Below, one piece after another: positions 6,670 to 34,921 of a stretch of DNA of 64,000 nt. A program made the translations under genes and the position numbers. Below the pieces are notes generated by a model. That model worked only from the letters and a program-made list of their open reading frames with translations. It searched no databases and was not told where the DNA came from. The stretch spans positions 831,430 through 895,429 of the forward strand of contig CBDBKC010000038.1 in assembly GCA_965206655.1 (NCBI GenBank), written 5' to 3'. Origin of the DNA: Bryobacterales bacterium (GTDB lineage: Bacteria; Acidobacteriota; Terriglobia; Bryobacterales; UBA6623). Position 1 is the stretch's first letter, and each line of letters starts with the position of its first letter.

Positions 6670-6788
6670 CTGAGGGTCTGTGAAAAAACTGGGGACAGTC
6701 CGCGGCGCGCCGCGTGTGAGCGCTGCGAACAAGGGAGTTACGCGGGCGGCGCTTGGTACAGTCCCCGTTTTTTCACAGACCCTGAGCG
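6670..6788. repeat. MITE-like palindromic element, copy 1 (core GGGGACAGTCC … GGTACAGTCCCC flanked by ctgtgaaaaaa / ttttttcacag)
   Basis: Same ~100 bp element recurs at 32620-32722, 32951-33050, 34210-34318 and 34737-34833. Confidence 0.7.
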
Positions 6789-6969
6789 TGCAGTAGCGCT
6801 ATCGATTAACAACTTTGTTAAATGTTAGGCGACTGGGCCGGGGGCTGTCAACGGCTCAGCAACGATCGGTGGATGCGCGGACCTGGATCGCGGAGACTCG
6901 CGACCCGGCAAAGCTGGAGCCTTGCGCCACATCGATCACACGCAAGGTTCTTACGTAGCCTCCCGCTAC

Positions 6970-7458
6970 TCAATCCACTCGCGCCGCGAAGTCCCGAGCC
7001 ACCATGTCGGCATCTTCCTGGGGCAAACCGACGATCCCTAACACCCAACGCGCCTTTTGCATGACCAGAACGTCCTGCACGCCGTCTTTGCCAAAGTAGC
7101 CGCCCATGTGGGCCAAGTACTTCGGCCCCTCCATTTGCGCCCGATACTCATTCAGCAGCAGAGCCGCCGAGGTCGGTGAGTCGACTTGAACCAGGAACTG
7201 TTGCCACCTCTTGCCGTTGTCATCGTACTGGGCGATGTTGCCGCCCGGCAGAAAGTCCTTTCCCAATACATGGTTGTCGACGATTTCAACGGAAACACGG
7301 TTTTGAGATGGAAAGCGGCGCGTCTCTTCGCGCGGCTTTTTGAGCAGGGGCGGAGCCGCCTCGGCTTTCGGTTCCTCGGGTTGATCGCTGGGAATGCTGC
7401 AACCGGAAGAGGCGCCGATGATCACCGACACGGTCGAGACTAAGAGCACTTTGCTCAT
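6970..7458 (-). CDS. Putative lipoprotein (signal peptide + Cys)
   Basis: MSKVLLVSTVSVIIGASSGC… lipobox-like; GGGAGGA Shine-Dalgarno upstream of ATG at 7458. The longer ORF start at 7536 is less likely. Confidence 0.45.
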   Translation of the reverse strand: MSKVLLVSTVSVIIGASSGCSIPSDQPEEPKAEAAPPLLKKPREETRRFPSQNRVSVEIVDNHVLGKDFLPGGNIAQYDDNGKRWQQFLVQVDSPTSAALLLNEYRAQMEGPKYLAHMGGYFGKDGVQDVLVMQKARWVLGIVGLPQEDADMVARDFAARVD

Positions 7459-7569
7459 ACATCCTCCCAGGAAAACCCTCTTTCGTTCGTTCACTCGCGT
7501 TGCGTTGACGCAGCTTAGGCAGGCGGATCGGTACAATGAACGGACCCGCGCGCTCGCCTCTGCCCATCC

Positions 7570-8982
7570 ATGTTCAATCCCGTCATCCTTAGCTTTGTCG
7601 GCTTTCTCATTGCGTTCATTCTCATCGGGGCCTACGCCTCGCGGCGCAAGACAGACACCACCGAGGACTACCTGCTCGCCAGCCGCAGCATCGGCCCCTG
7701 GTTCACGGCGCTATCGGCCGTGTCGACGAACAACAGCGGATTCATGTTCATCGGCCTTATCGGAACAACATACACCATGGGCCTGTCGGCCGTGTGGATT
7801 ATGTTCGGCTGGATTTTCGGCGACTATCTGATGTGGTTTTGGATTCATCGGCGTCTCCGTGAAGGGAGCGAAGCGCGGCACGCGCGCACGATCCCTTCAT
7901 TCCTGGCGGCGGAGATGCCTGGCGGACGGCGGTTGGTGCAGGGGACCGCGGCCGTGATTACGCTTACTTTTCTCGGAACTTACTCGGCGGCCCAGTTGAA
8001 TGCGGGTAGCAAGGCTCTGAACGTCCTGTTTGGCTGGCCTTACTCCACGGGCGCTATCGTAGGGGCGGTCATCGTTGTTATCTACTGCTTCGCCGGCGGC
8101 ATTCGAGCCTCGATCTGGACCGACGTTGTGCAATCGATCAACATGCTCTTCGCGGTCTGGCTGCTTTTCGGCCTCGCGCTCTACGAAGTGGGGGGATTCA
8201 GCTCGTTGTGGTCGCAGCTTGAAGCGATCGATCCGCAGCTCATCAATTGGAGCCCGCCGAACCCCAGATTCGGATTGGCGCTGTTTGTCTTCGGTTGGTT
8301 CGGCGCGGGGATTGGGGTCGTTGGGCAGCCGCATATCATGGTTCGCGCGATGTCAATTCGCTCAGGCCAGGACATTGCGAAGGCGCGTGACATTTACTTG
8401 ATCTGGTACCTGCTTTTCACGATCGCTTGCTATGGAGTTGCGCTGGCCTGCCGCATCCTGATCCCGGATGTTGGTGCGTTCGATGCCGAGTTAGCACTTC
8501 CAACGTTAGCGATCGAGTACCTTCCCGGCGTGCTGGTCGGACTCGTGCTCGCGGGACTTTTCGCGGCGACGATGTCGACGGCCGACTCGCAGGTGCTGTC
8601 GTGTTCGGCGGCGCTCACCCAGGACCTGTTTCCTGAATGGAGTGAGTCGTACGCGAAATCGAAATTGGCAACCCTGTTCGTGATGGCCGCAGTTCTGGGT
8701 ATCGCGCTTTTTGCGAGCCAGAATGTTTTTGCGCTCGTTACGCTGTCTTGGTCCGCGCTGGGCGCTTCGCTCGGCCCGCTGTTGATTGTGCGGGCGATGC
8801 GTTGGCCGGTGAATGCCCGGACCGGCTTCGGCATGATGGTCGGCGGCTTGGCGGGCGCGATCGTGTGGGGTAAAGTGCTCGGCTACGGCAACGACCTGTT
8901 TGAAGCGATGCCCGGCTTCCTACTTAGTTTCGCCGTCTATTTGCTGTTGCGCCCGCGTGGCGGACCGCCGACACCTCACTAG
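7570..8982 (+). CDS. Sodium:solute symporter (SSS family) transporter
   Basis: 470 aa with 12-13 TM segments; N-terminal region resembles PutP/SSS family. Confidence 0.75.
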   Translation: MFNPVILSFVGFLIAFILIGAYASRRKTDTTEDYLLASRSIGPWFTALSAVSTNNSGFMFIGLIGTTYTMGLSAVWIMFGWIFGDYLMWFWIHRRLREGSEARHARTIPSFLAAEMPGGRRLVQGTAAVITLTFLGTYSAAQLNAGSKALNVLFGWPYSTGAIVGAVIVVIYCFAGGIRASIWTDVVQSINMLFAVWLLFGLALYEVGGFSSLWSQLEAIDPQLINWSPPNPRFGLALFVFGWFGAGIGVVGQPHIMVRAMSIRSGQDIAKARDIYLIWYLLFTIACYGVALACRILIPDVGAFDAELALPTLAIEYLPGVLVGLVLAGLFAATMSTADSQVLSCSAALTQDLFPEWSESYAKSKLATLFVMAAVLGIALFASQNVFALVTLSWSALGASLGPLLIVRAMRWPVNARTGFGMMVGGLAGAIVWGKVLGYGNDLFEAMPGFLLSFAVYLLLRPRGGPPTPH

Positions 8983-9129
8983 CTTGGTGGATTTGCCTGG
9001 AAGTCCGGCGTCAAACACCGGCGACGCAGGGGTTTCGCAGCTCGCCAAGGCTCTCAACCGAACGCGGCCTCGTAATCGACTTCGTTCGAAAAGGATGAGA
9101 TCTCGATGTTGACGCCGGGCGGGGGCGAC

Positions 9130-10584
9130 CTACCCGCCGGGATAGCGTCGATCAAGCCATGTTTGGAGGTCTTCCATGGATGACCAGTCCGGCTCGTCGG
9201 CGACACCGTAGCCTGGGCGTTGGAGGCTGGCGCAGTTGACCGAGCCGTCTCGTACGTTCAGAAACCACTCATCCCCTCGTTTCGCGTAGAGGTCGGTGTG
9301 GTGGCGGGCGACGGACGCCTTGTCGCCCTCGGACAGCATGGAGAGCCCGTAGTTGTAGTGGTGGCCGTTTCGCTCGCAGTGGTCGATCCCGAGGACGGCG
9401 AGCGAGGCGAAATCTTGATGGAGCGGCACGATCGGCAAATTCTGAAGATCCTCACCGCTCATGAAAGCGGGTTCGCCGAGCCGGTTGTAGTGGGTTACGA
9501 GCGCCCGGTTGAGGAGCGACTTGAAGAAGCCCTTGCAGTTTTTGTGCGATACGCCGCGATAGCCGATCCGATAGGCGTCGCGGTAGCTCGTCAGGCTGCC
9601 GTCGGCCTCGTCGATGAGGAGCGGCTTGCGTTCGGCGATGCGGCGGATGGCCGGCGTGGTTTCCGGATCGAGGGTCAGCGCGCGCGGCAATGGTTGTTCG
9701 ATCCAGAGTAGGTGTTGAAAGAGGCCGAGCTGTTGCTTCTCGAGATCGCCGACAAAGGCCTCGAACTCGGCCAGGTCGTAGTAGGCCTCGTTCGCATCCA
9801 TCGTGACGTGGGCGCCTCGGTTCGCGGGTAGGATTTCCCAGATGCGCGTCATACGCCGCAGGTCTTTCTTCCGGTCGCCGGACAATTTGAGTTTGAAGTA
9901 ACGAAGTCCGTCTTCGCGGATGTACTCTTGCAGGGTTTCGGGCAGGCCGTCGTTCACTCGATCTGACGCGGGCAAATCGTCGCCGGTGAGAGGGTCGGAG
10001 TTGCCCACAGTGTGCCGGATGTGAAATGCCGTGAGCGGTTCGGGGGAGGTGTAGTCGGCGGCTCGCAGTTCCTCTGTTTCCCGGTGGATCTTCTCTGGTT
10101 GGAAACCCAGGCGACCGGCACGGACCATCTCAAAAATCGACTTGCCGGCGAGTCGGCAGACGGCATCGAGCAGTGCCCGCTCAAAAAGAGCGGACGCAAA
10201 GGCTGACGTTAGGGCTTCCTGCTTTCTCTCTTTCCCGGCCTGGGTGATTTTCGGATGCCGGGACCGCCACTCCGCGAATGGTGTTTCAAACTCGTTCGCG
10301 TCCGATAGGTAGATGCCGCGCGCCGCGTAGATCAAGTCCACTAATTCACGAAGCTTCTGACCCTTCTCGCGGCCGGGGCGCTTGTCGAGCCAGCGTACAG
10401 ACAGGCGGTCGGCCGCGCAGCCGAAGGTTTCGTTGCCCTCGGTGTCGCGGATGACCATGCGCACGTGGGCGATGGGGCTCGTCGCGTGGGTGCCCTCGCT
10501 GCCCATGCGGCCGATCGACATCGATACGCGATTGGGCAACGTCTCGCGCATATACAGCTCGATGGTTCGAATGCGATAGGCCAT
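9130..10584 (-). CDS. Enolase-superfamily (mandelate racemase/muconate lactonizing enzyme-like) protein
   Basis: 484 aa. Metal-ligand motifs in order: VTMDANEAY (D), WIEQP (E), LLIDEAD (D). Confidence 0.5.
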   Translation of the reverse strand: MAYRIRTIELYMRETLPNRVSMSIGRMGSEGTHATSPIAHVRMVIRDTEGNETFGCAADRLSVRWLDKRPGREKGQKLRELVDLIYAARGIYLSDANEFETPFAEWRSRHPKITQAGKERKQEALTSAFASALFERALLDAVCRLAGKSIFEMVRAGRLGFQPEKIHRETEELRAADYTSPEPLTAFHIRHTVGNSDPLTGDDLPASDRVNDGLPETLQEYIREDGLRYFKLKLSGDRKKDLRRMTRIWEILPANRGAHVTMDANEAYYDLAEFEAFVGDLEKQQLGLFQHLLWIEQPLPRALTLDPETTPAIRRIAERKPLLIDEADGSLTSYRDAYRIGYRGVSHKNCKGFFKSLLNRALVTHYNRLGEPAFMSGEDLQNLPIVPLHQDFASLAVLGIDHCERNGHHYNYGLSMLSEGDKASVARHHTDLYAKRGDEWFLNVRDGSVNCASLQRPGYGVADEPDWSSMEDLQTWLDRRYPGG

Positions 10585-10596
10585 GACTTGTGATCT

Positions 10597-11433
10597 CTAT
10601 TGTCCGCCAAGAGGTGCGACCAGACGGCGGAAAGTTTCGCCGGCCTCGAATGGGTCGTCTTGTGCGGCGGCGGCTGCCCTATTGAGCAGCCAGTGTTTCG
10701 GGTCGGGTCCGCATGGCAAACCTGGGAGTTGTGTTTCGTGGCAACTCAGGGCCGCCGCCTGAGTGTCGAGATAGCCGCTCACGTCGACAATCGTTCCCGG
10801 TTCATCGGAATCCCACAGAAGAAGCTCATGAACCTTGTGTGGCTCGAGCCCTTGCCGGATGTGTTCGGGGAAATGCAGGCGGTCGCGGACATAGGGGTAG
10901 GTCGCGTCCTGCACAACGATGCCGGCGATGCGATGGTCGCGATGAGAGAACCCGCGGCGGCGGTAGGGGTCGTGGGTGAGAACGGTCTCGGGGCGATGCC
11001 TGCGGATGAGCTCGACGATGCGGCCTCGAAATTCGACCGTGTCGTCGAGGCCGCCATCGGGCAAGCCCAGCATGACAAGCTCGCGAACACCGAGCCGGCA
11101 GGCGGCGGTTTGCTGCTCGGCGAGCCGAATGCGAGCAACGTTGGCGGGCGTGAGTGCCGGTTGGGCTGTGCCGGCGGCGCCATTGGTGCAGACGACAAGG
11201 GTCACTTCACATCCGGCGGTGATCCACTTCGCCAGCGTGGCGCCGGCGTTGAGTTCGGCGTCGTCGGGATGAGCCGACACGGCCATAGCGCGCTGCGGGA
11301 TAGAGTCGAGATGTTCGAAACGGGGCATGTCCAGAACAAAGTACCCTGAAGCTTTCCCATGGTAGATTGTTTGTCCGAACTCCATGATGACAGCCCCGCG
11401 GTGAAAGACGTTAAACCCCCCACCGATGCGCAC
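10597..11433 (-). CDS. PIG-L/LmbE-family N-acetylglucosaminyl deacetylase (MshB/BshB-like); true start likely internal
   Basis: AHPDDAE signature (MAVSAHPDDAELNAGATL…). Divergent from the GT4 gene. Confidence 0.7.
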   Translation of the reverse strand: MRIGGGFNVFHRGAVIMEFGQTIYHGKASGYFVLDMPRFEHLDSIPQRAMAVSAHPDDAELNAGATLAKWITAGCEVTLVVCTNGAAGTAQPALTPANVARIRLAEQQTAACRLGVRELVMLGLPDGGLDDTVEFRGRIVELIRRHRPETVLTHDPYRRRGFSHRDHRIAGIVVQDATYPYVRDRLHFPEHIRQGLEPHKVHELLLWDSDEPGTIVDVSGYLDTQAAALSCHETQLPGLPCGPDPKHWLLNRAAAAAQDDPFEAGETFRRLVAPLGGQ

Positions 11434-12667
11434 ACCTTTACGAATCGCTGTCCTCAGTCTTCATACCTGTCCACTTTCACGGCCCGGTACGCGGGATTCG
11501 GGCGGCATGAATGTGTATGTTCGGGAAACGGTGCGCGTGATGGCGTCAAAAGGCGTACTGGTGGACATATTCACCCGCAGGCATGGCGGCGCGGATGAGG
11601 ACGTCGCCCTCGGAGTCGGTTGCCGACTGGTGCATATCGAAGCGGGCCCGCCGGATATAGCCAAGGGCGATCTGGCCCCCTGGCTGGCGAGTTTCGTGCA
11701 AGGTGTGGAGGAGTTTGCTCGGCGCACCGGCGGCGCCTATGACGGGGTGGTGAGTCACTATTGGCTTTCGGGGCTGGCGGGGATTCGTCTGCGGGATTTG
11801 TGGGGCGGCCGGCATGTAGCGGGTTTGCACACCTTGGCCGTGCCGAAGTCACGGGCGTTCCCCCACGATGCTGTGATGCCGGCACGCGTCGCCGGCGAAC
11901 GGCTCGTTGTGAAAGAGGCGGACGCACTATTGGCAGCAACCACACACGACCACGAAGCGCTGGTGGTGGACTATGGGGCGGACGAAAAACGCATCGTGGT
12001 TGCTCCGCCGGCTGTGGATACGGCACGGTTCCGTCCGCGGGATCGAGAGACTTGCTGCCGCCGGTTGAGACTCTCGGCGGAGGGCCACCGGCTTCTCTTC
12101 GTCGGCCGGACGATTCCACTGAAGGGTATTGAAGTGCTTTTCGAGGCTCTATCGCTGATGACGCCCGACACGTCGGCGGTTGTTGTCGGGGGAGAATTAA
12201 ACGGCCATGAGCACGAGTTATTGGCGGCCGCGGCACGGCGACTCCGCGTGGTTGAGCGTGTCACGTTTGCGGGCAGTGTTCCTCACCAGCACTTGCCGTT
12301 GTACTACGGGGCGTCCGATGTTTGTGTTCTGCCTTCGTATTACGAGAGCTACGGACTGGCGGCGTTGGAGGCTCTGGCTTGCGGCCGGCCGGTCGTCGCT
12401 TCAAAGGTGGGGGGACTAGAGTCGGTGGTGAACCACGGTGTCAATGGATTCCTGGCGTCACCCGGTTCGCCGGAAGAATTTGCGAAGGCGATTACGACTC
12501 TACTCAGCGACCAGGACCTTTGTCGTTCACTGGGCCTGGCGGGCGTCAAGAGCGCACGGCATCGCGGTTGGGCACAAACGGCCGAGAGGATTCTCGGATG
12601 CTTGGTGGACCCGGCCCCGGCCGCTCGTTCGGCGCTCGATGCATCGGTGGCCATCGCTCGGTCATGA
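11426..12667 (+). CDS. GT4 glycosyltransferase, MshA-like (D-inositol-3-phosphate GlcNAc transferase-like)
   Basis: N-terminus …RIAVLSLHTCPLSRPGTRDSGGMNVYV… matches the MshA signature; C-terminal GT-B EX7E region. Confidence 0.75.
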   Translation: MRTPLRIAVLSLHTCPLSRPGTRDSGGMNVYVRETVRVMASKGVLVDIFTRRHGGADEDVALGVGCRLVHIEAGPPDIAKGDLAPWLASFVQGVEEFARRTGGAYDGVVSHYWLSGLAGIRLRDLWGGRHVAGLHTLAVPKSRAFPHDAVMPARVAGERLVVKEADALLAATTHDHEALVVDYGADEKRIVVAPPAVDTARFRPRDRETCCRRLRLSAEGHRLLFVGRTIPLKGIEVLFEALSLMTPDTSAVVVGGELNGHEHELLAAAARRLRVVERVTFAGSVPHQHLPLYYGASDVCVLPSYYESYGLAALEALACGRPVVASKVGGLESVVNHGVNGFLASPGSPEEFAKAITTLLSDQDLCRSLGLAGVKSARHRGWAQTAERILGCLVDPAPAARSALDASVAIARS

Positions 12668-13506
12668 TCGAGGTCATCTTTCTTGATCTTGACGAGACGC
12701 TCGTCGCCCAGGAGCAAGCTTTCGAACGCGCCTACCAGGCGGTGGCGCGTTTGGCCGCGGACCTTTCCGGAATTGATGCCTTCTCGTTCGCGCAAGCGGT
12801 TCCGGCGGCGGCGGATGCTTGTTTCAACGGGTTGGGAACGGCCGAATTTGTACGGCGTTGCCGGTTTGGGGGACGAGATGTGCTCTGGGGCGATACGAGA
12901 GTGGGGGAAGCACCGGGAGAAGCGGGGGCGGATGCCGCGGAATCGCTGCGCAAGCTCGACGAGGAGGTCGGAGGATATCGTCTGGCGGCTTGGTCGCATT
13001 TGCTGGAAGAGTTCGGGGTTCGCCCCGGCTCGCAACAAGAGGAGATACGCGGTTCGCTTGATGCATGCTTCCGGCGGGAGATGGACGCGGGGATTGAGGC
13101 GTTCCCCGACGTCGTTCCAGCGCTTGAGCGGTTGAGCAGGAGCTACCGTTTGGGAGTCATCACGAACGGTTTGCCGCTGGGTCAGCGGAGGAAACTCGAG
13201 CGATTGGGGATAGCTCGGTATTTCGAAACGCTGGTGGCTTCAGCCGAGGTGGGAGTCGGCAAACCGGATCGCGAAATCTTTTGTAGGGCGCTGAGCCGAA
13301 TGCGAGTTGCCGCCGGTGACGCCTTGATGGTCGGAGATAGTCTGGAGGGGGATGTGCTTGGCCCGCAACGGGCGGGGATGAAAGCTGTTTGGCTGCGGCG
13401 CGGAGATTACAGCGGGGCAGGGTGCGCGAACGAGGTTCCAGTCGCGGCGGATCTTCAGGAGTTGGAGGCTGTGCTGAACTCGGTTTCACTCAGTTCGGCG
13501 CTGTGA
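12664..13506 (+). CDS. HAD-superfamily hydrolase (phosphatase)
   Basis: Motif I FLDLDETL at N-terminus; …VGDSLEGD… motif IV. ATGA start/stop overlap with the GT4 gene. Confidence 0.7.
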   Translation: MIEVIFLDLDETLVAQEQAFERAYQAVARLAADLSGIDAFSFAQAVPAAADACFNGLGTAEFVRRCRFGGRDVLWGDTRVGEAPGEAGADAAESLRKLDEEVGGYRLAAWSHLLEEFGVRPGSQQEEIRGSLDACFRREMDAGIEAFPDVVPALERLSRSYRLGVITNGLPLGQRRKLERLGIARYFETLVASAEVGVGKPDREIFCRALSRMRVAAGDALMVGDSLEGDVLGPQRAGMKAVWLRRGDYSGAGCANEVPVAADLQELEAVLNSVSLSSAL

Positions 13507-24079: not shown

Positions 24080-25222
<1,143 letters not shown>

Positions 25223-25234
<12 letters not shown>

Positions 25235-25270
25235 CTCGTTTCTTCATCTCGTTTCTTCATCTCGTTTCTT
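25223..25270. repeat. Tandem 13-bp repeat (tcgtttcttcatc x ~3.7) spanning the coaE stop and the htrA start codon
   Basis: Seen directly. Each unit carries CAT (ATG on the minus strand); the coaE TGA lies in unit 3. Confidence 0.8.
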
Positions 25271-27365: not shown

Positions 27366-28517
27366 ATGTTGAAGAGTTCTGATTTCCGTACCGGGCAGAT
27401 TTGGCCGGCATTTTGCGTTTGCATGTGGATTGTCACCTTCCTTAGGCTCGCGGCACCCGTTCGAGCGGCCGACGGGCCTTTCTTCGAAACGGGCACGGTT
27501 GTGAAGTCCCAAGGGACTCGTCTCTACCACAACGCCTACCCGACGGTCGCTCGTCTCACCAGCGGCCGCTTGCTGGCGGTATTCGGCGCCTACTCGCCAG
27601 ATCAGAGCAGCGCTCGGGTGATGGCGGCTCTCTCCGACGACGGAGGCCGTACCTGGTCTAGCCCCAAGCAGATCGTCGACAATCCTGGCCTCTGGGACGG
27701 CGATCCTAACGTCATCGTCGACGGGCCACGAACGTTCGTCTATTGCACGACCCGCAAAGTCGACCTGACGACCATCGACAGGAGCACGGTGTTCATGGTC
27801 AAGACCGATGACGACGGAGAGAGCTGGTCGAGTCCGGTTGAGATATCGATGCCCAAGAAGTACGTCGCCGGCAAGCAGCACAAGGGCATGCGCCTCGGTG
27901 ACGGGACGCTGCTGATGGGCTACTCCTGGGACCTGTGGGCCGAGAAGGGCACGCCGGCGCGCACCGAAGGGGAGATGAACATCGCGGCCGGCGCCTTGCG
28001 ATCGACGGACGGCGTCCACTGGACACCCTTCGGCGCGCTCCACGTCTGGATTCCCAAGATGACCCCGTATTCCACCAACGGCCTCGACGAACCCTCGATC
28101 GTCCAGTTGGCCGACGGCGAGATTCTCATGCTGCTTCGGACCGGATCGAACCGTCACTACGAGAGTCGCAGCCGCGACGGCGGTCTCACCTGGGCGCCCC
28201 CGCGTCCGAGCTCGCTGACGGGACACAATACGCCCACGGGATTGTGGCGGCTGGACCGAAGCGAAGAGATCATCGCCATTTGGAACAATTCTCCCGTGAA
28301 CCGGCGGCCGTTGAGCGTGGCCATCTCGGCCGATGGCGGCCGCACCTGGAGCCCGCCGCGAAACGTCGCGGAGTCTGACGGGCCACAGGTGTCGTATCCC
28401 AGCATCACGCAAGCCGACGACGGCACCTTCGTCGCTCTCTGGCAGCAACAGCTTTCCGAGGGGGGCCGGGACATCCGCTGGGCACGGTTTAATCGGGCGT
28501 GGGTTTTGGGGCAGTGA
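27366..28517 (+). CDS. Secreted BNR/Asp-box sialidase-like glycoside hydrolase (GH33-like)
   Basis: Signal peptide; repeated SxDxGxTW Asp-boxes (SDDGGRTW, TDDDGESW, SRDGGLTW, SADGGRTW). Strong SD GGAGGA before ATG 27366. Confidence 0.7.
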   Translation: MLKSSDFRTGQIWPAFCVCMWIVTFLRLAAPVRAADGPFFETGTVVKSQGTRLYHNAYPTVARLTSGRLLAVFGAYSPDQSSARVMAALSDDGGRTWSSPKQIVDNPGLWDGDPNVIVDGPRTFVYCTTRKVDLTTIDRSTVFMVKTDDDGESWSSPVEISMPKKYVAGKQHKGMRLGDGTLLMGYSWDLWAEKGTPARTEGEMNIAAGALRSTDGVHWTPFGALHVWIPKMTPYSTNGLDEPSIVQLADGEILMLLRTGSNRHYESRSRDGGLTWAPPRPSSLTGHNTPTGLWRLDRSEEIIAIWNNSPVNRRPLSVAISADGGRTWSPPRNVAESDGPQVSYPSITQADDGTFVALWQQQLSEGGRDIRWARFNRAWVLGQ

Positions 28518-28540
28518 CGGGGCAGAGCCGCTGAGACCGA

Positions 28541-30070
28541 ATGAACATTGCGAACCACATGCTGCGAGCGGGCCGCGCCTTCGGCGACAGGCCGGCGGTG
28601 GCTCGAGGGGATGCGGTGCTACACAGCTATGCATCTCTCGCGGAGCGGGTGGCGCGGCTTGCCGGAGGACTCACTCTGCGTTTGGGCTTAGAGCCCGGCG
28701 ACCGAGTGGCCCTTGCGATGAAGAACTGTCCCGAATATTTGGAGATCCTGTATGCTTGCTGGCACGCCGGCCTGGTCGCTGTGCCGATCAATGCCAAACT
28801 GCACGCGAGCGAATTCGCCTACATCCTGGAAAACTGCGGCGCGCGCCTGTGTTTCGCGACTGCGGAGTCGGCGGAGGCAATCGGGCCGTTGGCAGGAGGA
28901 ATGCTCCAGAGGGTGATCGCCGTACCCGACCAGGAATACGAGACGCTGGTGACGACAAGCGAGCCGGTGGACCTTTGGCCCCGCGCACCGAACGACACGG
29001 CTTGGCTGTTCTACACGAGCGGGACCACGGGCCGGCCCAAAGGCGCGACGTTAACCCACCGCAACCTGCTGGCGATGTGCTTCTGCTACTTCGCCGATCT
29101 CGATCCGGGGGCGCCCTGGAAGGCTATGCTCCACGCTGCGCCTTTGAGCCACGGGTCCGGACTCTACAGCCTTGCCCACGTTACCCAGGCCTCTTGCCAC
29201 GTCATCCCGGAAAGCGGCGGGTTTGATGTAGGTGAGATCTACGCTCTGATCCGCCGGTGGCCGGCTATCTCGTTCTTCATGGCGCCCACCATGGTGAAAC
29301 GCCTGCTGGACCACCCCCGCGACGAAGACACGACTCATCTCAAGACTCTTATCTACGGTGGCGGACCGATGTACGTGGAGGACTGCCAGGCGGGGCTCGA
29401 TCGCTTTGGGCCGAAGCTCTCCCAGCTTTACGGCCAAGGCGAGAGCCCGATGACGATCACGGCGCTGAACGCGGCGCTCCACGCCGCGTCCGAACATCCC
29501 CGCTGGCTTGAGCGTCTGGCGTCGGTGGGCGTGCCTCAGAGCGTAGTCGAGGTGCGGGTGGCGGACTCCGACGACCGCCCCCTTCCCCCGGGTGAGCCGG
29601 GCGAGGTGTTGGTGCGGGGTGACTCGGTGATGGCCGGCTACTGGGGCGACCCGGAAGCCACTGCAGAAACTCTGCGAGGCGGGTGGCTCCACACGGGCGA
29701 TGTGGGTGTGTTCGACGACGACGGCTTCCTCACCCTCAAGGACCGATCCAAGGACGTGATCATCTCAGGGGGCGCGAACATCTACCCCCGCGAGGTGGAA
29801 GAAGTCCTGCTGCGTCATCCGCTTGTAGCGGAGGTGTCGGTGATAGGGCGGCCGGACCGGGAGTGGGGCGAGGTCGTGGTCGCTTATCTCGTGGCCGCTC
29901 AGGGAGCCGCGGTCAACCCGGATGACCTCGACAAGTTCTGCCTGAAACACATAGCGCGCTTCAAGCGGCCAAGAGACTATCTCTTCATCGAAAGCATTCC
30001 AAAGAACAACTACGGAAAAGCGCTGAAGACGACGTTGCGGCAATTAGATGAGCAGAACGCCTCTGGATGA
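28541..30070 (+). CDS. AMP-dependent synthetase/ligase (acyl-CoA synthetase family)
   Basis: YTSGTTGRPKG AMP-binding motif; …GYWGDPEAT…; 509 aa. Confidence 0.85.
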   Translation: MNIANHMLRAGRAFGDRPAVARGDAVLHSYASLAERVARLAGGLTLRLGLEPGDRVALAMKNCPEYLEILYACWHAGLVAVPINAKLHASEFAYILENCGARLCFATAESAEAIGPLAGGMLQRVIAVPDQEYETLVTTSEPVDLWPRAPNDTAWLFYTSGTTGRPKGATLTHRNLLAMCFCYFADLDPGAPWKAMLHAAPLSHGSGLYSLAHVTQASCHVIPESGGFDVGEIYALIRRWPAISFFMAPTMVKRLLDHPRDEDTTHLKTLIYGGGPMYVEDCQAGLDRFGPKLSQLYGQGESPMTITALNAALHAASEHPRWLERLASVGVPQSVVEVRVADSDDRPLPPGEPGEVLVRGDSVMAGYWGDPEATAETLRGGWLHTGDVGVFDDDGFLTLKDRSKDVIISGGANIYPREVEEVLLRHPLVAEVSVIGRPDREWGEVVVAYLVAAQGAAVNPDDLDKFCLKHIARFKRPRDYLFIESIPKNNYGKALKTTLRQLDEQNASG

Positions 30071-30888
30071 CCAAACAGCGTCCACAAATGAGTAAGCGAC
30101 TGAAAGATAAGATCGCGCTGGTGTCCGGCGCCGGCTCTGTGGGACCAGGCTGGGGCAACGGGAAGGCCACCGCAGTGCTGTTCGCCCGCGAGGGGGCCAC
30201 CGTACTGTGCGCCGATATCAACCGGGAGGCGGCCGAAGAAACCCGCGATATCATCCGCGGCGAGGGCGGCCGCGCCGAAGCATGGGAGTGCGACGTTTCC
30301 CAAGCCGATCAGGTCAAAGCCATGGCCGCCGGTTGTCTCGATCACTATGGCCGGATCGACGTGCTCCAGAACAACGTAGGAATCCTGACCGTAGGCGGGC
30401 CGGTCGACACCACCGAAGAAGACTGGGATCGGGTTCACGATGTGAACCTGAAGAGCATGTTTCTTACTTGCAAGTACGTCCTGCCGGTGATGGAGCGGCA
30501 GGGGAGCGGAGCTATCGTTAACATCTCGTCGATTGCGGGCCTGCGGCACCTGGGTGTCCCGTATCTCGCCTATAACACTTCGAAGGCGGCGGTAAGCCAC
30601 CTGACCCGAATGATCGCCGTGGAGTGGGCCCCGAAGGGAATTCGTTGCAACAGCGTGTCCCCTGGGTTCTTGCGCACACCGATGGTCGAGAAGTCGCTAG
30701 CGGACCACTATGCCGACGGTGATGTCGACGAGATGTTCCGCAAGCGCGCAGCGCTTGTCCCCATGGGACGAGGCGGTGACGCCTGGGACGTTGCCTACGC
30801 TTCGCTGTACCTTGCCTCGGACGAGGCGAAATACGTCACAGGCGCCGATCTCGTGGTCGACGGCGGGCTGACCGTGAAGTGCGTGTAA
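30067..30888 (+). CDS. Short-chain dehydrogenase/reductase (SDR); alternative start at 30088
   Basis: ALVSGAGSVG Rossmann motif, NNVG, Y-x3-K (YNTSKAA). Confidence 0.85.
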   Translation: MTKQRPQMSKRLKDKIALVSGAGSVGPGWGNGKATAVLFAREGATVLCADINREAAEETRDIIRGEGGRAEAWECDVSQADQVKAMAAGCLDHYGRIDVLQNNVGILTVGGPVDTTEEDWDRVHDVNLKSMFLTCKYVLPVMERQGSGAIVNISSIAGLRHLGVPYLAYNTSKAAVSHLTRMIAVEWAPKGIRCNSVSPGFLRTPMVEKSLADHYADGDVDEMFRKRAALVPMGRGGDAWDVAYASLYLASDEAKYVTGADLVVDGGLTVKCV

Positions 30889-31129
30889 GGGCCAACTCGT
30901 CAAAGCTGCGCACTTGGATTCGGCCGCGCCGATCATGTACGCTGAAATCACGCCGGGAGACAATTTTTTCTGATTTAGCTATTGACACCACTGCTAAGTG
31001 GTGTTACTATTCTCTTGTTCGGAGGAAACCATGTTGCTACACGCCTATAAATCGAGGTTCCACATGCCTCATTGGTGCGGTCTCTTTGAGTCACCGTATG
31101 CCGGCGTGAGCGGACGCTCCGGACTCCAC

Positions 31130-31202
31130 TCGGATATAGCTCAAATGGATAGAGCATCAGGCCATAACCTGACTGTCACGGGTTCGAATCCCGTTATCCG
31201 CC
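31130..31202 (+). pseudogene. Degenerate tRNA-like gene (canonical D- and T-arms, but 6-nt anticodon loop 'ccauaa' and U1·C72 mismatch); possibly a decayed tRNA-Met/Ile2
   Basis: Manual fold: GCUC-AAAUGGAUA-GAGC D-arm, ACGGG-UUCGAAU-CCCGU T-arm, no CCA; anticodon stem UCAGG/CCUGA closes only 6 nt. Confidence 0.35.
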
Positions 31203-31444
31203 TGACTCGAAATCAGGCTTAACCAAGAGTGAACCGGGCCGCGTTTCGGCCGCCTGTCCTCGCGGTTTGAGGACGGCCGGCAGCGCCGCCTCGGCTCTGT
31301 GCTTCCGTTGAAACTGCCGGCCGTGATGCGGGTGAAGTATGCCCGCGGCTCGTCCGGCTCTAGCTGAAGCCCGCCATAGGCTGCGTGAAGCGCGGTTCGG
31401 GGATCTCAATTCACAGAAAGACTTTGCTACGAGGAGGTGCTGTC

Positions 31445-32557
31445 ATGATTCGTCGAATTATTGTGGGGGACAACGAGCGCGCCGTGTTGATTCGCAAGCG
31501 GCGCTTCGAATCGATTCTCACGCCGGGATCTTACTGGGTTTTCGGCCCCGGCGTCGAAATCGAAGCCTTCAACATTCGGCATCCGGAGTTTTCGAGCGAG
31601 TGGGCTGACTTCGTTGCCACGCAGCGGCCGGATGTCGGGTCGGAGCACTTCACGGTGATCGAGACCGGCGACTCGGAAGTTGCGGTCGTTTACTTCGACG
31701 GCAAGCTTGCTCGTGTCGTTGGTCCCGGTACGCGGACTCTTTACTGGCGCGATTCGGCTGACGTGACGTTCGAGGTGATCGACGTTGTGGCCGAGCCCGA
31801 GGTGCCGACGAAACTGGTGGCGGCTCTTGCCCGCCGGGGCGGGGAGTCGTTCGCGAACTTCGTTCTGGTGGAAGACGGTATGCAAGCCCTCGTTCATCTC
31901 GATGGACAACTGATCCGCGAGTTGGGGCCGGGCGCGCACGCCTTCTGGACCGCGGTCGCTCAGCCGAAGGTGACGTTGAGCGATCTGCGGCGTCAGACGC
32001 TTGAAGTAACGGGTCAGGAAATCCTGACGGCCGACAAGGTTGGCGTTCGAGTCAACGTCTCGGTTGTATACGAGGTCGTGAACGCGGTTGCGGTGCGTGC
32101 TGGTGTGACCGATGTCCGGGAGCACCTGTATCGGACGGTACAGATCGCTGTTCGTCAGTACCTAGGCAAGCGGACGCTTGAAGAGATGCTGGCGGAGAAG
32201 ACGGACCTCGATGCGGCGGTTGCGGAGACGGTTCGGAGCGACATGGAACCCGTCGGCGTTCGAGTGCGAGTCATCGCCCTCAAGGATGTTGTTCTGCCGG
32301 GCGATGTCCGGGAGATCATGAACCAGGTCGTGACTGCGGAGAAGCAAGCGCAGGCCAACCTGATTCGACGTCGAGAGGAGGTGGCGTCGACGCGTTCGTT
32401 GCTCAACACGGCCAAGCTGATGGGTGAAAACCCCATTCTGGTGCGGCTCAAGGAGCTCGAGTCACTCGAGCGGATCGCCGAGAAGGTGGAGAAGATCACC
32501 GTTGTCGGCGGAATGAATGCGCTCCTGGAGCGCACGGTGAGTATCCGGCCTGAATGA
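31445..32557 (+). CDS. SPFH/band-7 (stomatin/prohibitin-like) domain protein with N-terminal extension
   Basis: C-terminal half (…QEILTADKVGVRVNVSVVYEV…DVREIMNQ…) is SPFH-like; SD GAGGAGG before ATG 31445. Confidence 0.65.
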   Translation: MIRRIIVGDNERAVLIRKRRFESILTPGSYWVFGPGVEIEAFNIRHPEFSSEWADFVATQRPDVGSEHFTVIETGDSEVAVVYFDGKLARVVGPGTRTLYWRDSADVTFEVIDVVAEPEVPTKLVAALARRGGESFANFVLVEDGMQALVHLDGQLIRELGPGAHAFWTAVAQPKVTLSDLRRQTLEVTGQEILTADKVGVRVNVSVVYEVVNAVAVRAGVTDVREHLYRTVQIAVRQYLGKRTLEEMLAEKTDLDAAVAETVRSDMEPVGVRVRVIALKDVVLPGDVREIMNQVVTAEKQAQANLIRRREEVASTRSLLNTAKLMGENPILVRLKELESLERIAEKVEKITVVGGMNALLERTVSIRPE

Positions 32558-32619
32558 GGCCGGTGAGCAAAGGGGGCCGGCGCGTTTGGCGCCGGCCCCG
32601 GATCGGGAAGCAAGCGCAG

Positions 32620-32722
32620 GCCGTGAAAAAACGGGGACTGTACCAAGCGCCGCCGCGTAACTGCTTTGTTCGCGGCGCTCACAAGCGGCGCGCCGTGGAC
32701 TGTCCCCAGTTTTTTCACAGCG
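32620..32722. repeat. MITE-like palindromic element, copy 2 (inverted orientation)
   Basis: About 90% identical to the reverse complement of copy 1. Confidence 0.7.
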
Positions 32723-32740
32723 CCTCAGGCGGAGTTACGC

Positions 32741-32816
32741 GCAGGGTTGGTGTAAGCGGGCAGCATGGCGGATTCCAAACCCGCCGGTGGAGGTTCGAGG
32801 CCTTCACCCTGTGCCA
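32741..32816 (+). tRNA. tRNA-Trp (anticodon CCA)
   Basis: Manual cloverleaf: acceptor GCAGGGU/ACCCUGU, G73, encoded CCA, T-loop UUCGAGG; anticodon stem has one mismatch. Confidence 0.65.
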
Positions 32817-32859
32817 GAAGTTTGTGGTCTTTGACAACCGAATAGCCGTAAGAATTCGT

Positions 32860-32934
32860 TGCGGGATAGCTGGAGTGGCTCCAGTCCGGTCTCATAAGCC
32901 GGTAAGGGCGGTTCGATTCCGCCTCCCGCAACCA
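32860..32934 (+). tRNA. tRNA-Met (anticodon CAT; elongator or Ile2-type)
   Basis: Acceptor UGCGGGA/UCCCGCA, anticodon loop CUCAUAA, T-arm GGCGG-UUCGAUU-CCGCC, CCA encoded. Confidence 0.75.
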
Positions 32935-32950
32935 TTTTCGGAACAGGAAG

Positions 32951-33050
32951 GTGTGAAGAAATCGGGACTGTCACAAGCGCGGGCCAAAGCACTCGCCGGT
33001 TCGCAAGCGCTGACTGAAGCGCGGTTGACTGTCCCAGCATTTTTTCGCAC
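32951..33050. repeat. MITE-like palindromic element, copy 3 (diverged)
   Basis: gggactgtc … gactgtccc with aaa/ttttt flanks. Confidence 0.55.
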
Positions 33051-33059
33051 CTTCAAAAT

Positions 33060-33134
33060 GCCGGAGTCGTTCAACAGATAGGACCCTGGGCTTCGAACCC
33101 AGTGATGCGGGTGCAACTCCTGTCTCCGGTTCCA
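33060..33134 (+). tRNA. tRNA-Arg (anticodon TCG), non-canonical D/T loops
   Basis: Acceptor GCCGGAG/CUCCGGU, anticodon arm CUGGG-CUUCGAA-CCCAG, D-loop AACAGAUA (no GG), T-loop UGCAACU (G55), CCA encoded. Confidence 0.6.
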
Positions 33135-33138
33135 GTTT

Positions 33139-33218
33139 GGCCGTGTAGCTCCAATTCGGTAGAGCGTCCGGTTGAAGCCCGGAGCCTTGTGCTGGTTCGA
33201 TTCCAGCCGCGGCCACCA
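33139..33218 (+). tRNA. tRNA-Phe (GAA)
   Basis: Anticodon loop UUGAAGC, canonical T-loop UUCGAUU, A73-CCA; slightly long D and variable loops. Confidence 0.75.
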
Positions 33219-33224
33219 GTTTTC

Positions 33225-33299
33225 CGGCAGGTAGCCCAATGGCAAGGCGCCTGACTGTTAATCAGACCGATGGAGGTTCGAGTCCTCCCCTGCCGGCCA
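33225..33299 (+). tRNA. tRNA-Asn (GTT)
   Basis: Anticodon loop CUGUUAA; T-arm GGAGG-UUCGAGU-CCUCC; CCA encoded. Confidence 0.85.
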
Positions 33300-33312
33300 A
33301 GCAAATTGTCGA

Positions 33313-33389
33313 GGACCTGTAGCCAAGTGGAAAGGCGGCCGGCTGCAACCCGGTCTATGCGTTGGGTTCGATTCCCACCGGGTCCTCCA
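33313..33389 (+). tRNA. tRNA-Cys (GCA)
   Basis: Anticodon arm GCCGG-CUGCAAC-CCGGU; U73; CCA encoded. Confidence 0.8.
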
Positions 33390-33409
33390 ACAGATGTAGA
33401 GAAGATCGT

Positions 33410-33484
33410 TCGGAGATGGTGCAACAGGGAGCACGGGTGGCTTTGACCCATCGAATCCTGGTTCGAGTCCAGGTCTCCGATCCA
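33410..33484 (+). tRNA. tRNA-Gln (TTG)
   Basis: Anticodon loop CUUUGAC; T-arm CCUGG-UUCGAGU-CCAGG; CCA encoded. Confidence 0.8.
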
Positions 33485-33500
33485 AAGTTCGAGGAATCGC

Positions 33501-33578
33501 GGACCGTTGGCGCAGTCCGGCAGTCGCGCTCGGTTGTCAGCCGAGAGGTCGTGGGTTCAAATCCCATACGGTCCGCCA
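33501..33578 (+). tRNA. tRNA-Asp (GTC)
   Basis: Anticodon arm CUCGG-UUGUCAG-CCGAG; G73; CCA encoded. Confidence 0.8.
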
Positions 33579-33779
33579 GAGCTTGGGTGACGGGGAGCGT
33601 GGAGGGGGATCCCAGAAATGCTCAGGGGACGTCGCCCAATTCGATCTGGCTTAGGCGGTCTGGCTGCAATCAACAGATCACCGGCATCATCGGCCTTCGG
33701 CCGAGCTTGGAGATCGCGCACAGCGCGACCCGGCACGGCACAGCCGCGCGCCACAAAGCTTGTCGCGTTTCAGAGTTGA

Positions 33780-33854
33780 GCGTCCTTGGTGTCAACGGCA
33801 GCATGAAAGCCTTCCAAGCTTAGGGTGTCGGTTCAAATCCGACAGGACGCTCCA
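33780..33854 (+). tRNA. tRNA-Gly (TCC)
   Basis: Anticodon loop CUUCCAA, U73, T-arm GUCGG-UUCAAAU-CCGAC, CCA encoded. Confidence 0.7.
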
Positions 33855-33855
33855 T

Positions 33856-33933
33856 CAGGGTGTAGCTCAGTTTGGCCAGAGTTCCCGCCTTGGAAGCGGG
33901 ATGGCGTTGGTTCGAATCCAACCACCCTGACCA
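33856..33933 (+). tRNA. tRNA-Pro (TGG)
   Basis: Anticodon arm CCCGC-CUUGGAA-GCGGG; A73; CCA encoded. Confidence 0.85.
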
Positions 33934-33954
33934 CTTTTGTGGATTCCTAATTGT

Positions 33955-34029
33955 GGGTTCGTAGTTCAACAGCAGAACGGGTGACTTTTAATCATCACAA
34001 TGAGGGTGCGAATCCTTCCGAGCCCACCA
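33955..34029 (+). tRNA. tRNA-Lys (TTT), non-canonical D/T loops
   Basis: D-arm GUUC-AACAGCA-GAAC (no GG), anticodon loop CUUUUAA, T-loop UGCGAAU (G55), CCA encoded. Confidence 0.65.
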
Positions 34030-34030
34030 T

Positions 34031-34106
34031 GGGCCTATAGCTCAATTAGCAGAGCGCCTGCCTTGCAAGCAGGAGGTCGCGAGTGCAACTCCCGCCAGGT
34101 CCACCA
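34031..34106 (+). tRNA. tRNA-Ala (TGC), non-canonical D/T loops
   Basis: G3·U70 present, anticodon arm CCUGC-CUUGCAA-GCAGG, variable AGGUC; D-loop AAUUAGCA (no GG), T-loop UGCAACU (G55). Confidence 0.6.
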
Positions 34107-34117
34107 ACTTTGTTTGT

Positions 34118-34193
34118 AGGTCTATAGCTCAACCGGCAGAGCACCCGGTTCTTACCCGGGAGGTTGGGGGTTCGACGCCCTCTGGGCCTACCA
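34118..34193 (+). tRNA. tRNA-Lys (CTT)
   Basis: Anticodon arm CCCGG-UUCUUAC-CCGGG; canonical UUCGACG T-loop; CCA encoded. Confidence 0.75.
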
Positions 34194-34209
34194 AGTTTCT
34201 TGGAGCTTG

Positions 34210-34318
34210 TGCGAGGGCGAAAAACTGGGGACAGTCCACGGCGCGCCGCTTGCGAATGCGGCAAGCAGAGAAGTGACAGGGGCGGCGCTTGGTACAGTCC
34301 CCGTTTTTCGCGGGTTCG
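34210..34318. repeat. MITE-like palindromic element, copy 4
   Basis: …gaaaaactggggacagtcc…ggtacagtccccgttttt…. Confidence 0.7.
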
Positions 34319-34338
34319 ACGCCCGGCCCACAAAGTTC

Positions 34339-34415
34339 GGCCTTGTAGCCCAACCGGCAGAGGCGGCCGTCTCAAAAGCGGCGCAGTGAAGGTTCGAATC
34401 CTTCCAGGGCCACCA
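34339..34415 (+). tRNA. Class-I (short variable loop) tRNA with anticodon CAA (Leu codon UUG); isotype uncertain
   Basis: Anticodon arm GCCGU-CUCAAAA-GCGGC (perfect), 5-nt variable loop, canonical GAAGG-UUCGAAU-CCUUC T-arm, A73-CCA. Confidence 0.5.
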
Positions 34416-34485
34416 AGGTTTTGGCTGTGATGAAGGGGAGCGGTTGACGGCGGGACCGCTCTCTGACGATTACGGCTCGGTTTTT

Positions 34486-34562
34486 GCCTCGCTGATGGAA
34501 TTGGCATACATACCTGTCTTAGAAACAGGGTCTTCCAGGTTCGACTCCTGGGCGAGGTACCA
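34486..34562 (+). tRNA. Class-I (short variable loop) tRNA with anticodon TAG (Leu codon CUA); isotype uncertain
   Basis: Anticodon arm CCUGU-CUUAGAA-ACAGG (perfect), variable GUCUU, T-arm CCAGG-UUCGACU-CCUGG, A73-CCA. Confidence 0.5.
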
Positions 34563-34571
34563 ATTTGAAGT

Positions 34572-34654
34572 GGGTCGTACCGCGTGGCGCGGAAGCGGGC
34601 TGTAACCCCGCGGCTCGACGAGCACCGCTGGTTCGATTCCAGCACGACCCACCA
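34572..34654 (+). tRNA. tRNA-Tyr (GTA), class II
   Basis: Anticodon arm GCGGG-CUGUAAC-CCCGC, long variable arm GGCUCGACGAGCAC, A73-CCA. Confidence 0.7.
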
Positions 34655-34661
34655 CAGTTTC

Positions 34662-34738
34662 GGGCGTGTAGCTCAACGGAGAAGAGCAGGCGGCTTCTAC
34701 CCGCCCGGCTGGGGGTTCGAATCCTCCCACGCTCGCCA
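34662..34738 (+). tRNA. tRNA-Arg (TCT)
   Basis: Anticodon arm GGCGG-CUUCUAC-CCGCC; G73; CCA encoded. Confidence 0.8.
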
Positions 34739-34833
34739 AGAAAAAAGGGGACAGTCCACTTCGCGCCTCTTGGGGGTCCGGAGACGACCGCTGAGCCTTT
34801 AGGTGGCGCTCGGTACAGTCCCCATTCTTCTTG
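34737..34833. repeat. MITE-like palindromic element, copy 5
   Basis: caagaaaaaaggggacagtcc…ggtacagtccccattcttcttg. Confidence 0.65.
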
Positions 34834-34920: not shown

Positions 34921-34921
34921 C

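Follow-up and report, generated by a model that had tools for sequence, protein, structure and literature searches.

In this work we have examined a family of short palindromic repeats in a 64,000-nucleotide stretch of genomic DNA from a Bryobacterales bacterium (hereafter the window), in which five copies had been noticed earlier from the letters alone. We conclude, with a probability that we put at about 85%, that these repeats are miniature transposable elements with inverted repeats (MITEs), i.e. non-coding, non-autonomous DNA transposons. Every structural hallmark of a MITE was observed, as the elements are small and non-coding, carry terminal inverted repeats, are accompanied by a 3-bp target-site duplication, and are dispersed and polymorphic; only the partner is missing. 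Their mobility is demonstrated directly by presence and absence at orthologous sites in close relatives. The family is thus a new member of a familiar class of selfish DNA.

Five copies of one repeat family

The copies were delimited with a covariance model (R1) built from an alignment of 42 diverse family members (A6). Run over the whole window with filters off, it returned the five repeats at approximately the positions given by the sequence-only reading, and nothing else. All five lie far above the next-best match, which is unrelated and reaches 15 bits, and the window therefore holds exactly five copies, listed here with the duplication that flanks the first of them.

c1: 6674-6782, plus strand; full-length copy with ends GGGTCTGTGAAAAAAC...GTTTTTTCACAGACCC; R1 match 6677-6780, 98.9 bits
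c1 target-site duplication, left: 6671-6673, no strand; TGA
c1 target-site duplication, right: 6783-6785, no strand; TGA
c2: 32619-32724, minus strand; 94% identical to c1; R1 match 32619-32721, 92.5 bits
c3: 32947-33054, minus strand; sister subfamily with ends GAAGGTGTGAAGAAAT / ATTTTTTCGCACCTTC; R1 match 32949-33051, 42.9 bits
c4: 34218-34311, plus strand; eroded outer ends GCGAAAAAC...GTTTTTCGC; R1 match 34213-34316, 89.9 bits
c5: 34737-34834, plus strand; divergent interior; R1 match 34733-34838, 72.3 bits

Each copy scores far higher on one strand than on the other, giving the orientations +, -, -, +, + for c1 to c5; c2 had been correctly described as inverted, whereas c3, which had been taken as direct, is inverted like c2. 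The copies are 94-109 bp long, form a hairpin throughout and do not code for protein. They group as one family in our alignment A1 (repeat families D7, D8, D11, I1, I3 and I5), and A1, A6 and the R1 scan together bear out the earlier expectation that they can be aligned as such. Within the window the family falls into three subfamilies, c1/c2/c4, c5 and c3, the last being 86% identical to copies from metagenomes and about 70% identical to c1.

Several details of the architecture first proposed had to be revised. The intact terminal inverted repeats of the main subfamily read GGGGCTGTGAAAAAAT, those of the c3 subfamily GAAGGTGYGAAAAAAT (the family end pair in inverted orientation being GGGGCTGTGAAAAA / GAAGGTGYGAAAAA), and the ends of c4 and c5 are eroded, with CAAGAAAAAA/ATTCTTCTTG as the outer ends of c5. 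The outer repeat ctgtgaaaaaa/ttttttcacag, earlier ascribed to all copies, was found in c1 and c2 only. Inward of the terminal repeats the main subfamily carries two boxes, GGGGACAGTCC on the left and GGTACAGTCCCC on the right; this core had been quoted for every copy, but the boxes of c3 read GGGACAGTCA...GTGACAGTCCC. The motif gcggcgcgccgc, regarded as the self-complementary centre, is sited in the left arm and occurs in c1, c2 and c4 only. Nor are the boxes simple inverted repeats, as had been assumed: ACAGTC stands on the same strand in both arms, and because of this the stem contains an A.A mismatch, accompanied by a bulged T in c1, c2, c4 and c5. The prediction of a long hairpin held for all five copies, which fold with -45 to -74 kcal/mol and z-scores of -3.4 to -8.0 on the element strand (c1: -73.8 kcal/mol, z -8.0).

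Mobility, ends and spread of the family

The strongest evidence comes from the comparison of filled and empty sites. The copy c1 is missing at three orthologous loci (L115, L116 and L117), whose neighbouring proteins are 90%, 81% and 73% identical to those of the window. Read on the minus strand, the window has TCA-[109 nt]-TCA-GGAGC where the relatives have CCA|GGAGC or CAA|GGAGC, so that the empty sites hold a single triplet in the place of the duplicated TCA (TGA on the plus strand). This is a textbook filled-versus-empty comparison with a 3-bp duplication. A second comparison was possible in the array of tRNA genes that follows a slipin gene and contains the other four copies. In the syntenic relative, JGI contig Ga0315335_000496 (loci L097 and L115), whose slipin protein is 93% identical to that of the window, c2 and c3 are absent from L097, while c4 has an orthologue there (L097 8600-8703) with 82% identity, similar to that of its flanks, and is an old insertion. 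Conversely, L097 carries an extra copy between tRNA-Asn and tRNA-Cys, where the spacer in the window is 13 nt long.

The ends of the elements tell a similar story. Many Bryobacterales copies end GGGGCTGTGAAAAAAT.../...ATTTTTTCACAGCCCC, and the same ends recur across dozens of loci. Exact 3-nt direct repeats were present just outside the tips in 16 of 40 non-redundant copies with both termini, the duplicated triplets including TGA, TAA, TAG, GTA, TCG, CTC and TCA; permuting the right flanks 2000 times gave a mean of 2.5 and a maximum of 10 such copies, and repeats of four nucleotides numbered 0. In the window, c2 has the imperfect flanking triplets GCA/TCA. A scan of metagenome data with the c3-type end revealed a 110-111-nt family GAAGGTGTGAAAAAATGCTGGGACAGTCAG...GTGACAGTCCCGATTTTTTCACACCTTC, in which 3-nt repeats flank four independent copies among six complete ones (CCG, CAG, CGG and CCG). 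The ends also occur with other contents: the element at L099 8940-9090 combines the family's ends with another interior and is flanked by TGA/TGA, and L018 holds an element of about 290 nt that has these ends too. Identical tips around different or degenerate interiors are what would be expected if the ends are the part required by the transposase. Among the intact copies, 11 of 40 are centred in GC-rich palindromes, CCGCRYCGC-NNN-[element]-NNN-GCGRYGCGG. These copies could have entered the loops of terminator hairpins or of a different repeat; alternatively, such a siting could point to a composite element. Stop codons were considered as a specific target and rejected, as some copies supply or abut stops, though not systematically. 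Of the origins that the sequence-only reading had left side by side, it is derivation from a transposon that the empty orthologous sites and the 3-bp duplications demonstrate directly.

The earlier reading would have failed had the repeats been restricted to this one locus. Instead, the family is dispersed genome-wide in Bryobacterales. A search for the exact 23-base box pattern GGGGACAGTCC-N40-68-GGTACAGTCCCC, with one genome per species, found at least 96 loci against a chance expectation of about 0.5, and among the matches listed the element occurs in ten Bryobacterales, Solibacteraceae and 'Acidobacteria' assemblies. Three Bryobacterales assemblies contain at least 20, at least 15 and at least 15 loci; in the fetched loci, which total 753 kb, 181 matches to R1 reach E<=0.001 when both strands are counted. 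Among the matches listed, the metagenome-assembled genome (MAG) JAQBUE01 holds the nearest relatives of c1, c2 and c4, at 84-87% identity, and copies at unrelated loci are 84-94% identical. No match to the consensus was found by blastn in a plasmid collection. We also considered whether a shared neighbouring gene might explain the distribution and rejected this, since the recurrent neighbours are only ordinary paralog families (GFO/IDH/MocA oxidoreductases, beta-propellers and DUF1501/1549/1553). Two further observations were made in this survey. A 2.6-kb contig assigned to a 'Gammaproteobacteria' MAG (L017, JAKZVH010000140.1) carries a main-subfamily copy scoring 103 bits; the contig probably comes from an acidobacterium and was binned wrongly, and we do not take it as evidence of transfer. 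The Bryobacterales MAG CBDDCY01 (L031 800-1060, L033 and L072) contains a 257-nt repeat with three GGGGACATTTCTA(Y)CG motifs, which is the end of a 1.6-kb element encoding a transposase of the helix-turn-helix (HTH) plus rve type.

Which enzyme could move these elements? The best indication is given by the c3-type end GAAGGTG(T/C)GAAAAAA (GAAGGTGYGAAAAAA), which agrees with the inverted repeat of IS5, GAAGGTGCGAACAAG, at 13 of 15 positions; for this comparison the annotated E. coli plasmid NZ_CP023845.1 provided the IS5 ends (left GGAAGGTGCGAACAAG, right CTTATTCGCACCTTCC). IS5 itself produces 4-bp duplications. The plant Tourist/PIF-Harbinger MITEs are relatives of IS5 and have GGGGCTGT-type ends and 3-bp duplications. 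Tourist ends GGGGCTGTTTGG..., with a TWA duplication, presumably resemble the GGGGCTGTG... of our family. Within the IS5 family, members of the IS1031 group commonly have a target of three nucleotides (PMC2516522). Judging from these likenesses, an IS5-family enzyme is somewhat better than an even bet as the mobilising transposase. We hypothesize that the elements would be moved in trans by an IS5-family DDE transposase of an IS1031-like group, which would bind the ends of about 28 bp.

Effects on transcription and competing explanations

The copies may also influence transcription. The base of the stem is formed by GGGGAC.../...GTCCCC, followed by T5-7 on both strands, so that the shape of an intrinsic terminator is present. 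Since the two ends can pair with each other and contain runs of A and T (A6/T6 beside the stem base), a transcript of either strand would form a long GC-based hairpin running into a U-tract, a structure that would look like a bidirectional terminator or an RNA-processing site. A simple terminator scan misses the copies because their loops exceed its limit, the stem being far longer than usual. If the structure does act in this way, the copies would survive chiefly 3' of genes and in tRNA spacers, where a hairpin is tolerated, and the tRNA array would be a safe haven in which independent insertions gather. The spacers of 59 placed copies, typed with a crude GC3-based gene caller, were distributed as follows.

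Convergent spacers: 23 copies in 29 kb of intergenic DNA
Co-directional spacers: 31 copies in 52 kb of intergenic DNA
Divergent spacers: 5 copies in 26 kb of intergenic DNA

The chi-square is about 9 (p ~0.01), and p is ~0.03 when the tRNA-array copies, which the caller mis-typed, are removed. In co-directional spacers the element lies with transcription in 15 cases and against it in 16. A stop codon is found within 60 nt of many copies, and some adjoin a gene directly or provide its stop. Such a distribution is what selfish DNA would show if selection removed insertions that disrupt promoters, and it is also compatible with use as terminators. From the form of the hairpins and the depletion in divergent spacers, it is plausible that a role as terminator or attenuator is a side-effect of insertion.

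Several observations weigh against the explanation preferred here. There is no exact duplication at 24 of the 40 intact copies, seven have inverted rather than direct triplets, and c3, c4 and c5 have no recognisable duplication. The tip of the main subfamily matches IS5 at only about 9 of 15 positions. The sequence-only reading had proposed a search for a partner transposase with matching terminal repeats, but the window and about 750 kb of related loci yielded neither an autonomous element with these ends nor a transposase of the IS5 type. The window holds no further end-like sequences; the loci were negative in searches for matches to the terminal repeats alone and for pairs of them more than 200 nt apart; and the repeated segments longer than 350 nt among the loci are IS1595, IS1380-like, rve-type and IS630 elements, none with the tips of the family. 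With the E. coli IS5 transposase as query, tblastn detected none in the window or the loci, although distant members of the subgroup could escape such a search, and the scan of 11 metagenome contigs with the c3-type end gave only MITEs and one truncated copy. The IS5 assignment therefore rests on the similarity of the ends and the length of the duplication. In addition, c1 separates a gene that presumably still needs to be expressed from a promoter-like site, lying ahead of its start codon, and the predicted termination or processing at the hairpins is read from the shape of the sequence. Lastly, a plain MITE model predicts neither the conservation of the inner boxes, but not of the outer tips, across phyla nor the A.A mismatch that both subfamilies keep.

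More questions are raised by this last point. Among the matches listed, the inner module GAAAAN-GGGGACAGTCC...GGTACAGTCCCC-NTTTTC occurs in other phyla with unrelated interiors and outer tips, usually keeping the GAAAAY/RTTTTC flanks and a GCGC/GCGC inner stem. Its hosts are WOR-3, Hydrogenedentota, a betaproteobacterial MAG, several unclassified MAGs and Prevotellaceae. In Kuenenia (Planctomycetota) a tandem minimal form is found with 6-9 nt between the boxes, and viral contigs contained no long forms and two short ones (the minimal form of about 55 nt). A Kiritimatiellia MAG (JBJEWF010000063.1, L076 4040-5130) has a 1.1-kb intergenic array of about 30 GAAA-GGGGACTGTCCCC-AT units between divergent genes, and its irregular period of 21-35 nt means that it is not coding. 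In WOR-3 UBA2258, a 1.37-kb segment with the hairpin element in its middle occurs at L013 5539-6876 and L086 2772-4125 with 91% identity; no obvious transposase reading frame was seen in this repeat, on which no Pfam run was made. The exactness of the boxes in other phyla is partly imposed by the search pattern. The number of hits, the shared features that were not part of the search and the A.A mismatch kept in the independently found c3 subfamily nevertheless show that the boxes are truly homologous.

It may be that the inner module is the binding part of the ends that belong to a widespread transposase lineage. Could it instead be an autonomous functional unit shared across phyla, either a strand-asymmetric hairpin that acts as RNA or as single-stranded DNA, or two palindromic, putative protein-binding sites of 13 bp for a widespread factor, with the Bryobacterales MITEs as only one of its vehicles? 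We consider this unlikely. The module could also be dissected in another way, the 13-bp palindrome then containing an inner element that has duplicated 7 bp (ACAGTCC/GACAGTC); the 6-9-nt spacing of the boxes in Kuenenia speaks against a transposon insert of this kind.

The hairpins also recall REPINs, doublets of repetitive extragenic palindromes (REPs) that are moved as single-stranded hairpins by a RAYT (Y1 HUH) transposase. Like our elements, REPs and REPINs are dispersed palindromes and hairpins, about 100 nt in length and composed of two boxes that resemble each other, that lie downstream of genes in single, paired or arrayed forms; the same-strand ACAGTC in both arms is reminiscent of strand-specific recognition, and the 13-nt palindromes GGGGACNGTCCCC appear singly and in tandem in other phyla just as REPs occur singly, paired or clustered. 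However, REP and REPIN insertion is not known to cause a target duplication, and these elements have a conserved GTAG-type tetranucleotide. The family described here differs on both counts, with exact 3-bp duplications and no conserved 5' GTAG-type tetranucleotide in alignment A6; its terminal repeats are IS5-like, and no RAYT gene was noticed in the loci, the scan of which was not exhaustive. An origin as REPINs is accordingly improbable.

Two further explanations are weaker still. According to the first, the copies would be functional elements inherited vertically, either bidirectional intrinsic terminators or attenuators or sites at which RNase III processes the tRNA operon, and a shared function would be the reason for their likeness. 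The GC-rich stem with its A-run and T-run, the U-tract in both directions of transcription, the enrichment in convergent and depletion in divergent spacers and the closeness of many copies to stop codons would all agree with this. Nevertheless, presence and absence at orthologous sites, with precise boundaries and duplications, refute a non-mobile origin, and the close identity of copies at unrelated loci is likewise hard to reconcile with it. Moreover, one tRNA array holds four copies in both orientations, c1 lies directly before a ribosome-binding site, the array of the relative works without c2, c3 and c5, and the copies are not called by the terminator scan. We regard this explanation as very improbable.

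We would give no more credence to the second, a family of structured small RNA genes or a cis-regulatory RNA read from one strand, which the sequence-only reading had also offered. The hairpins are indeed very stable, and more so on the element strand in four of the five copies; G.U pairs outnumber A.C pairs in the lower stem (14 against about 5), and the conserved A.A mismatch with the bulged U resembles a protein-binding stem. On the other hand, the orientation relative to flanking transcription is random, opposite orientations occur inside the same tRNA operon, and together with the spacer pattern this argues against a strand-specific RNA gene. The apical half is variable and unconserved, in the modelled lower stem only the two outermost pairs covary (A6 columns 6-7 with 99-100) and no promoter-like sites adjoin the copies. 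Searches of the window and of 18 loci from other phyla against Rfam returned only tRNAs and Acido-Lenti-1, with no match over the window copies at the gathering score or at E<=5 and none to the elements in the 18 loci.

The MITEs might, finally, derive from and be moved by the IS630-family element located in the same array. It lies at 35178-36273, within 350 bp of c5, and has an end, CTGAGTCCCGC, that shares AGTCCC with the right box. IS630 elements duplicate TA. The copy in the array is flanked by TA, TA|CTGAGTCCCGCATAATAT...ATATTATGCGGGACTCAG|TA, whereas the repeats have variable 3-nt duplications, and its ends (CTGAGTCCCGCATAATAT) are unlike the MITE tips. Its TA duplication and unrelated ends therefore rule this element out as the mobiliser, and the chance that this explanation is correct is minimal. 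Integron attC-like sites, substrates that an integrase recombines as folded single strands, are hardly credible despite a superficial match in architecture (a paired outer box, a central position left unpaired, one extrahelical base, a terminal structure that varies and a length of 55-110 nt) and AAC...GTT at the stem base of c1, c2 and c4, as the attC outer-box consensus is RYYYAAC/GTTRRRY and most copies have AAAAAAT[GC]...ATTTTTT, are dispersed in both orientations rather than in co-oriented cassette arrays, carry target duplications and lie among ordinary genes with no integrase nearby.

Genomic setting, known relatives and significance

The window has a G+C content of 61%, and its proteins are closest to those of Bryobacterales. 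As had been seen earlier, four of the five MITEs, c2 to c5, are embedded in the tRNA array, which comprises 22-24 co-oriented genes at 32741-36554 and is flanked by the slipin (Band_7) gene and a dihydrodipicolinate synthase (DHDPS) gene. An array downstream of slipin is conserved in related Bryobacterales, with 25 genes in L097 (7173-9788) and 15 in L099 (8401-10113), and the arrays of these relatives differ by MITE and insertion sequence (IS) insertions and by losses of tRNA genes; in three related genomes the insertions occupy different positions. In the window, c2 lies between the terminator-like hairpin of the slipin gene and tRNA-Trp, c3 between tRNA-Met and tRNA-Arg(TCG), and c4 between tRNA-Lys(CTT) and tRNA-Leu(CAA). 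The GC-rich hairpin, GGGGGCCGGCGCGTTTGGCGCCGGCCCC at 32573-32600, directly follows the slipin gene and is conserved in L097; c2 is inserted beside it, and the window has about 17 extra nucleotides relative to L097 at this site.

The fifth copy begins at the 3' end of tRNA-Arg(TCT) and has tRNA-His on its other side. The same neighbours enclose tRNA-Arg(ACG) at L097 9087-9162, so that c5 occupies the slot of this gene and the window array is therefore without it. A 9-mer, CCGGAGACG, is common to the c5 slot and the tRNA-Arg(ACG) of L097 and may be a remnant or a chance match. The IS630 element is a recent insertion, absent from L097. It splits tRNA-Thr(TGT) into a 5' piece reaching to about 35177 and a 3' piece at 36272-36329, whereas the tRNA-Thr of L097 is intact. 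It contains an HTH_32/33 reading frame (35687-36238, minus strand) and a DDE_3 fragment (35199-35531, minus strand), the latter probably frameshifted. Is the family attracted to tRNA genes in general? A genome-wide association was rejected, as there was one tRNA in 60 loci with the element, and the array of the window is therefore only a local site of accumulation. Upstream of the array, a tRNA-like gene at 31130-31202 scores 49 bits with the Rfam tRNA model, has an apparent 6-nt anticodon loop (CCATAA) and was not assigned an anticodon by ARAGORN. Its counterpart lies upstream of the slipin gene in L097, L099 and L100, and is called tRNA-Leu(TAG) in L099.

The remaining copy, c1, has a minus-strand gene on either side, both read in the same direction, and lies 3 nt upstream of the Shine-Dalgarno sequence (GGAG) that belongs to the gene at 6105-6659 (minus strand). 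A promoter-like TTGACA-N18-TAACAT lies upstream of it at 6851-6822 (minus strand) and is conserved in the orthologous L115, which places c1 in the 5' leader of this gene. Elsewhere in the window we noted a match to the Acido-Lenti-1 RNA at 477-522 (minus strand, 43 bits), which lies within a separate group of repeats, direct and inverted, that is unrelated to the family (D3, D20, I2, I4 and I6; 251-563 and 1042-1173) and surrounds a reading frame at 568-1020, and a perfect tandem repeat of a 13-nt unit, CTCGTTTCTTCAT, with at least 3.8 copies at 25222-25270.

How does the family compare with known elements? It is related to the IS5/IS1031 group by the c3-type end and by the 3-nt target, as discussed above, and is set apart from it by the inner box GGGGACAGTCC, which has no counterpart in the IS5 ends that were read. 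It resembles the pneumococcal SPRITE in its similar size, its likeness to an intrinsic terminator, its build-up in intergenic DNA and its occasional clustering with other repeats, although the sequences are unrelated and the element described here is symmetrical, terminator-like both ways and has demonstrable ends and duplications. Among bacterial MITEs, Correia elements duplicate TA. Chunjie has a 9-bp duplication (PMC10969869, PMC3184786). In general, bacterial MITEs (Correia/NEMIS of Neisseria, RUP, ERIC, Nezha, Chunjie and QMITEs) are non-coding, multi-copy elements of about 100-250 bp with terminal inverted repeats and target-site duplications. They form long stem-loops and lie for the most part between genes; many of their copies are truncated and lack the ends, and a site filled in one genome can be empty in a relative (PMC10969869, PMC3184786). 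Our family shares the small size, multiple copies, hairpins, mostly intergenic location, ends, truncated copies, duplications and filled and empty sites, and is distinguished by its own sequence, its host phylum (Acidobacteriota, Bryobacterales) and its 3-bp duplication. A full-text literature search for the box sequences gave only unrelated primer matches, and nothing specific on acidobacterial MITEs was found. The MITE reviews do not mention Acidobacteria (PMC10969869, PMC3184786), and for this reason ours appears to be the first MITE family characterised in Bryobacterales and Acidobacteriota. Both its ends and its target duplication are well defined, and that it has moved recently is directly evidenced.

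In acidobacterial genomes and MAGs it is advisable to mask or annotate these elements, which create stop codons at gene ends and occupy 5' leaders and tRNA operons; their insertions can be used as strain-level markers. As a hot spot for structural changes, the tRNA array contains MITEs, an IS630 element splitting tRNA-Thr and a MITE in the slot of tRNA-Arg(ACG). If it is true that the hairpins terminate or process transcripts, the expression of a tRNA operon of 22-26 genes would be rewired differently in each lineage. Beyond Bryobacterales, the box shared across phyla suggests a broad, undescribed transposase lineage or binding factor.

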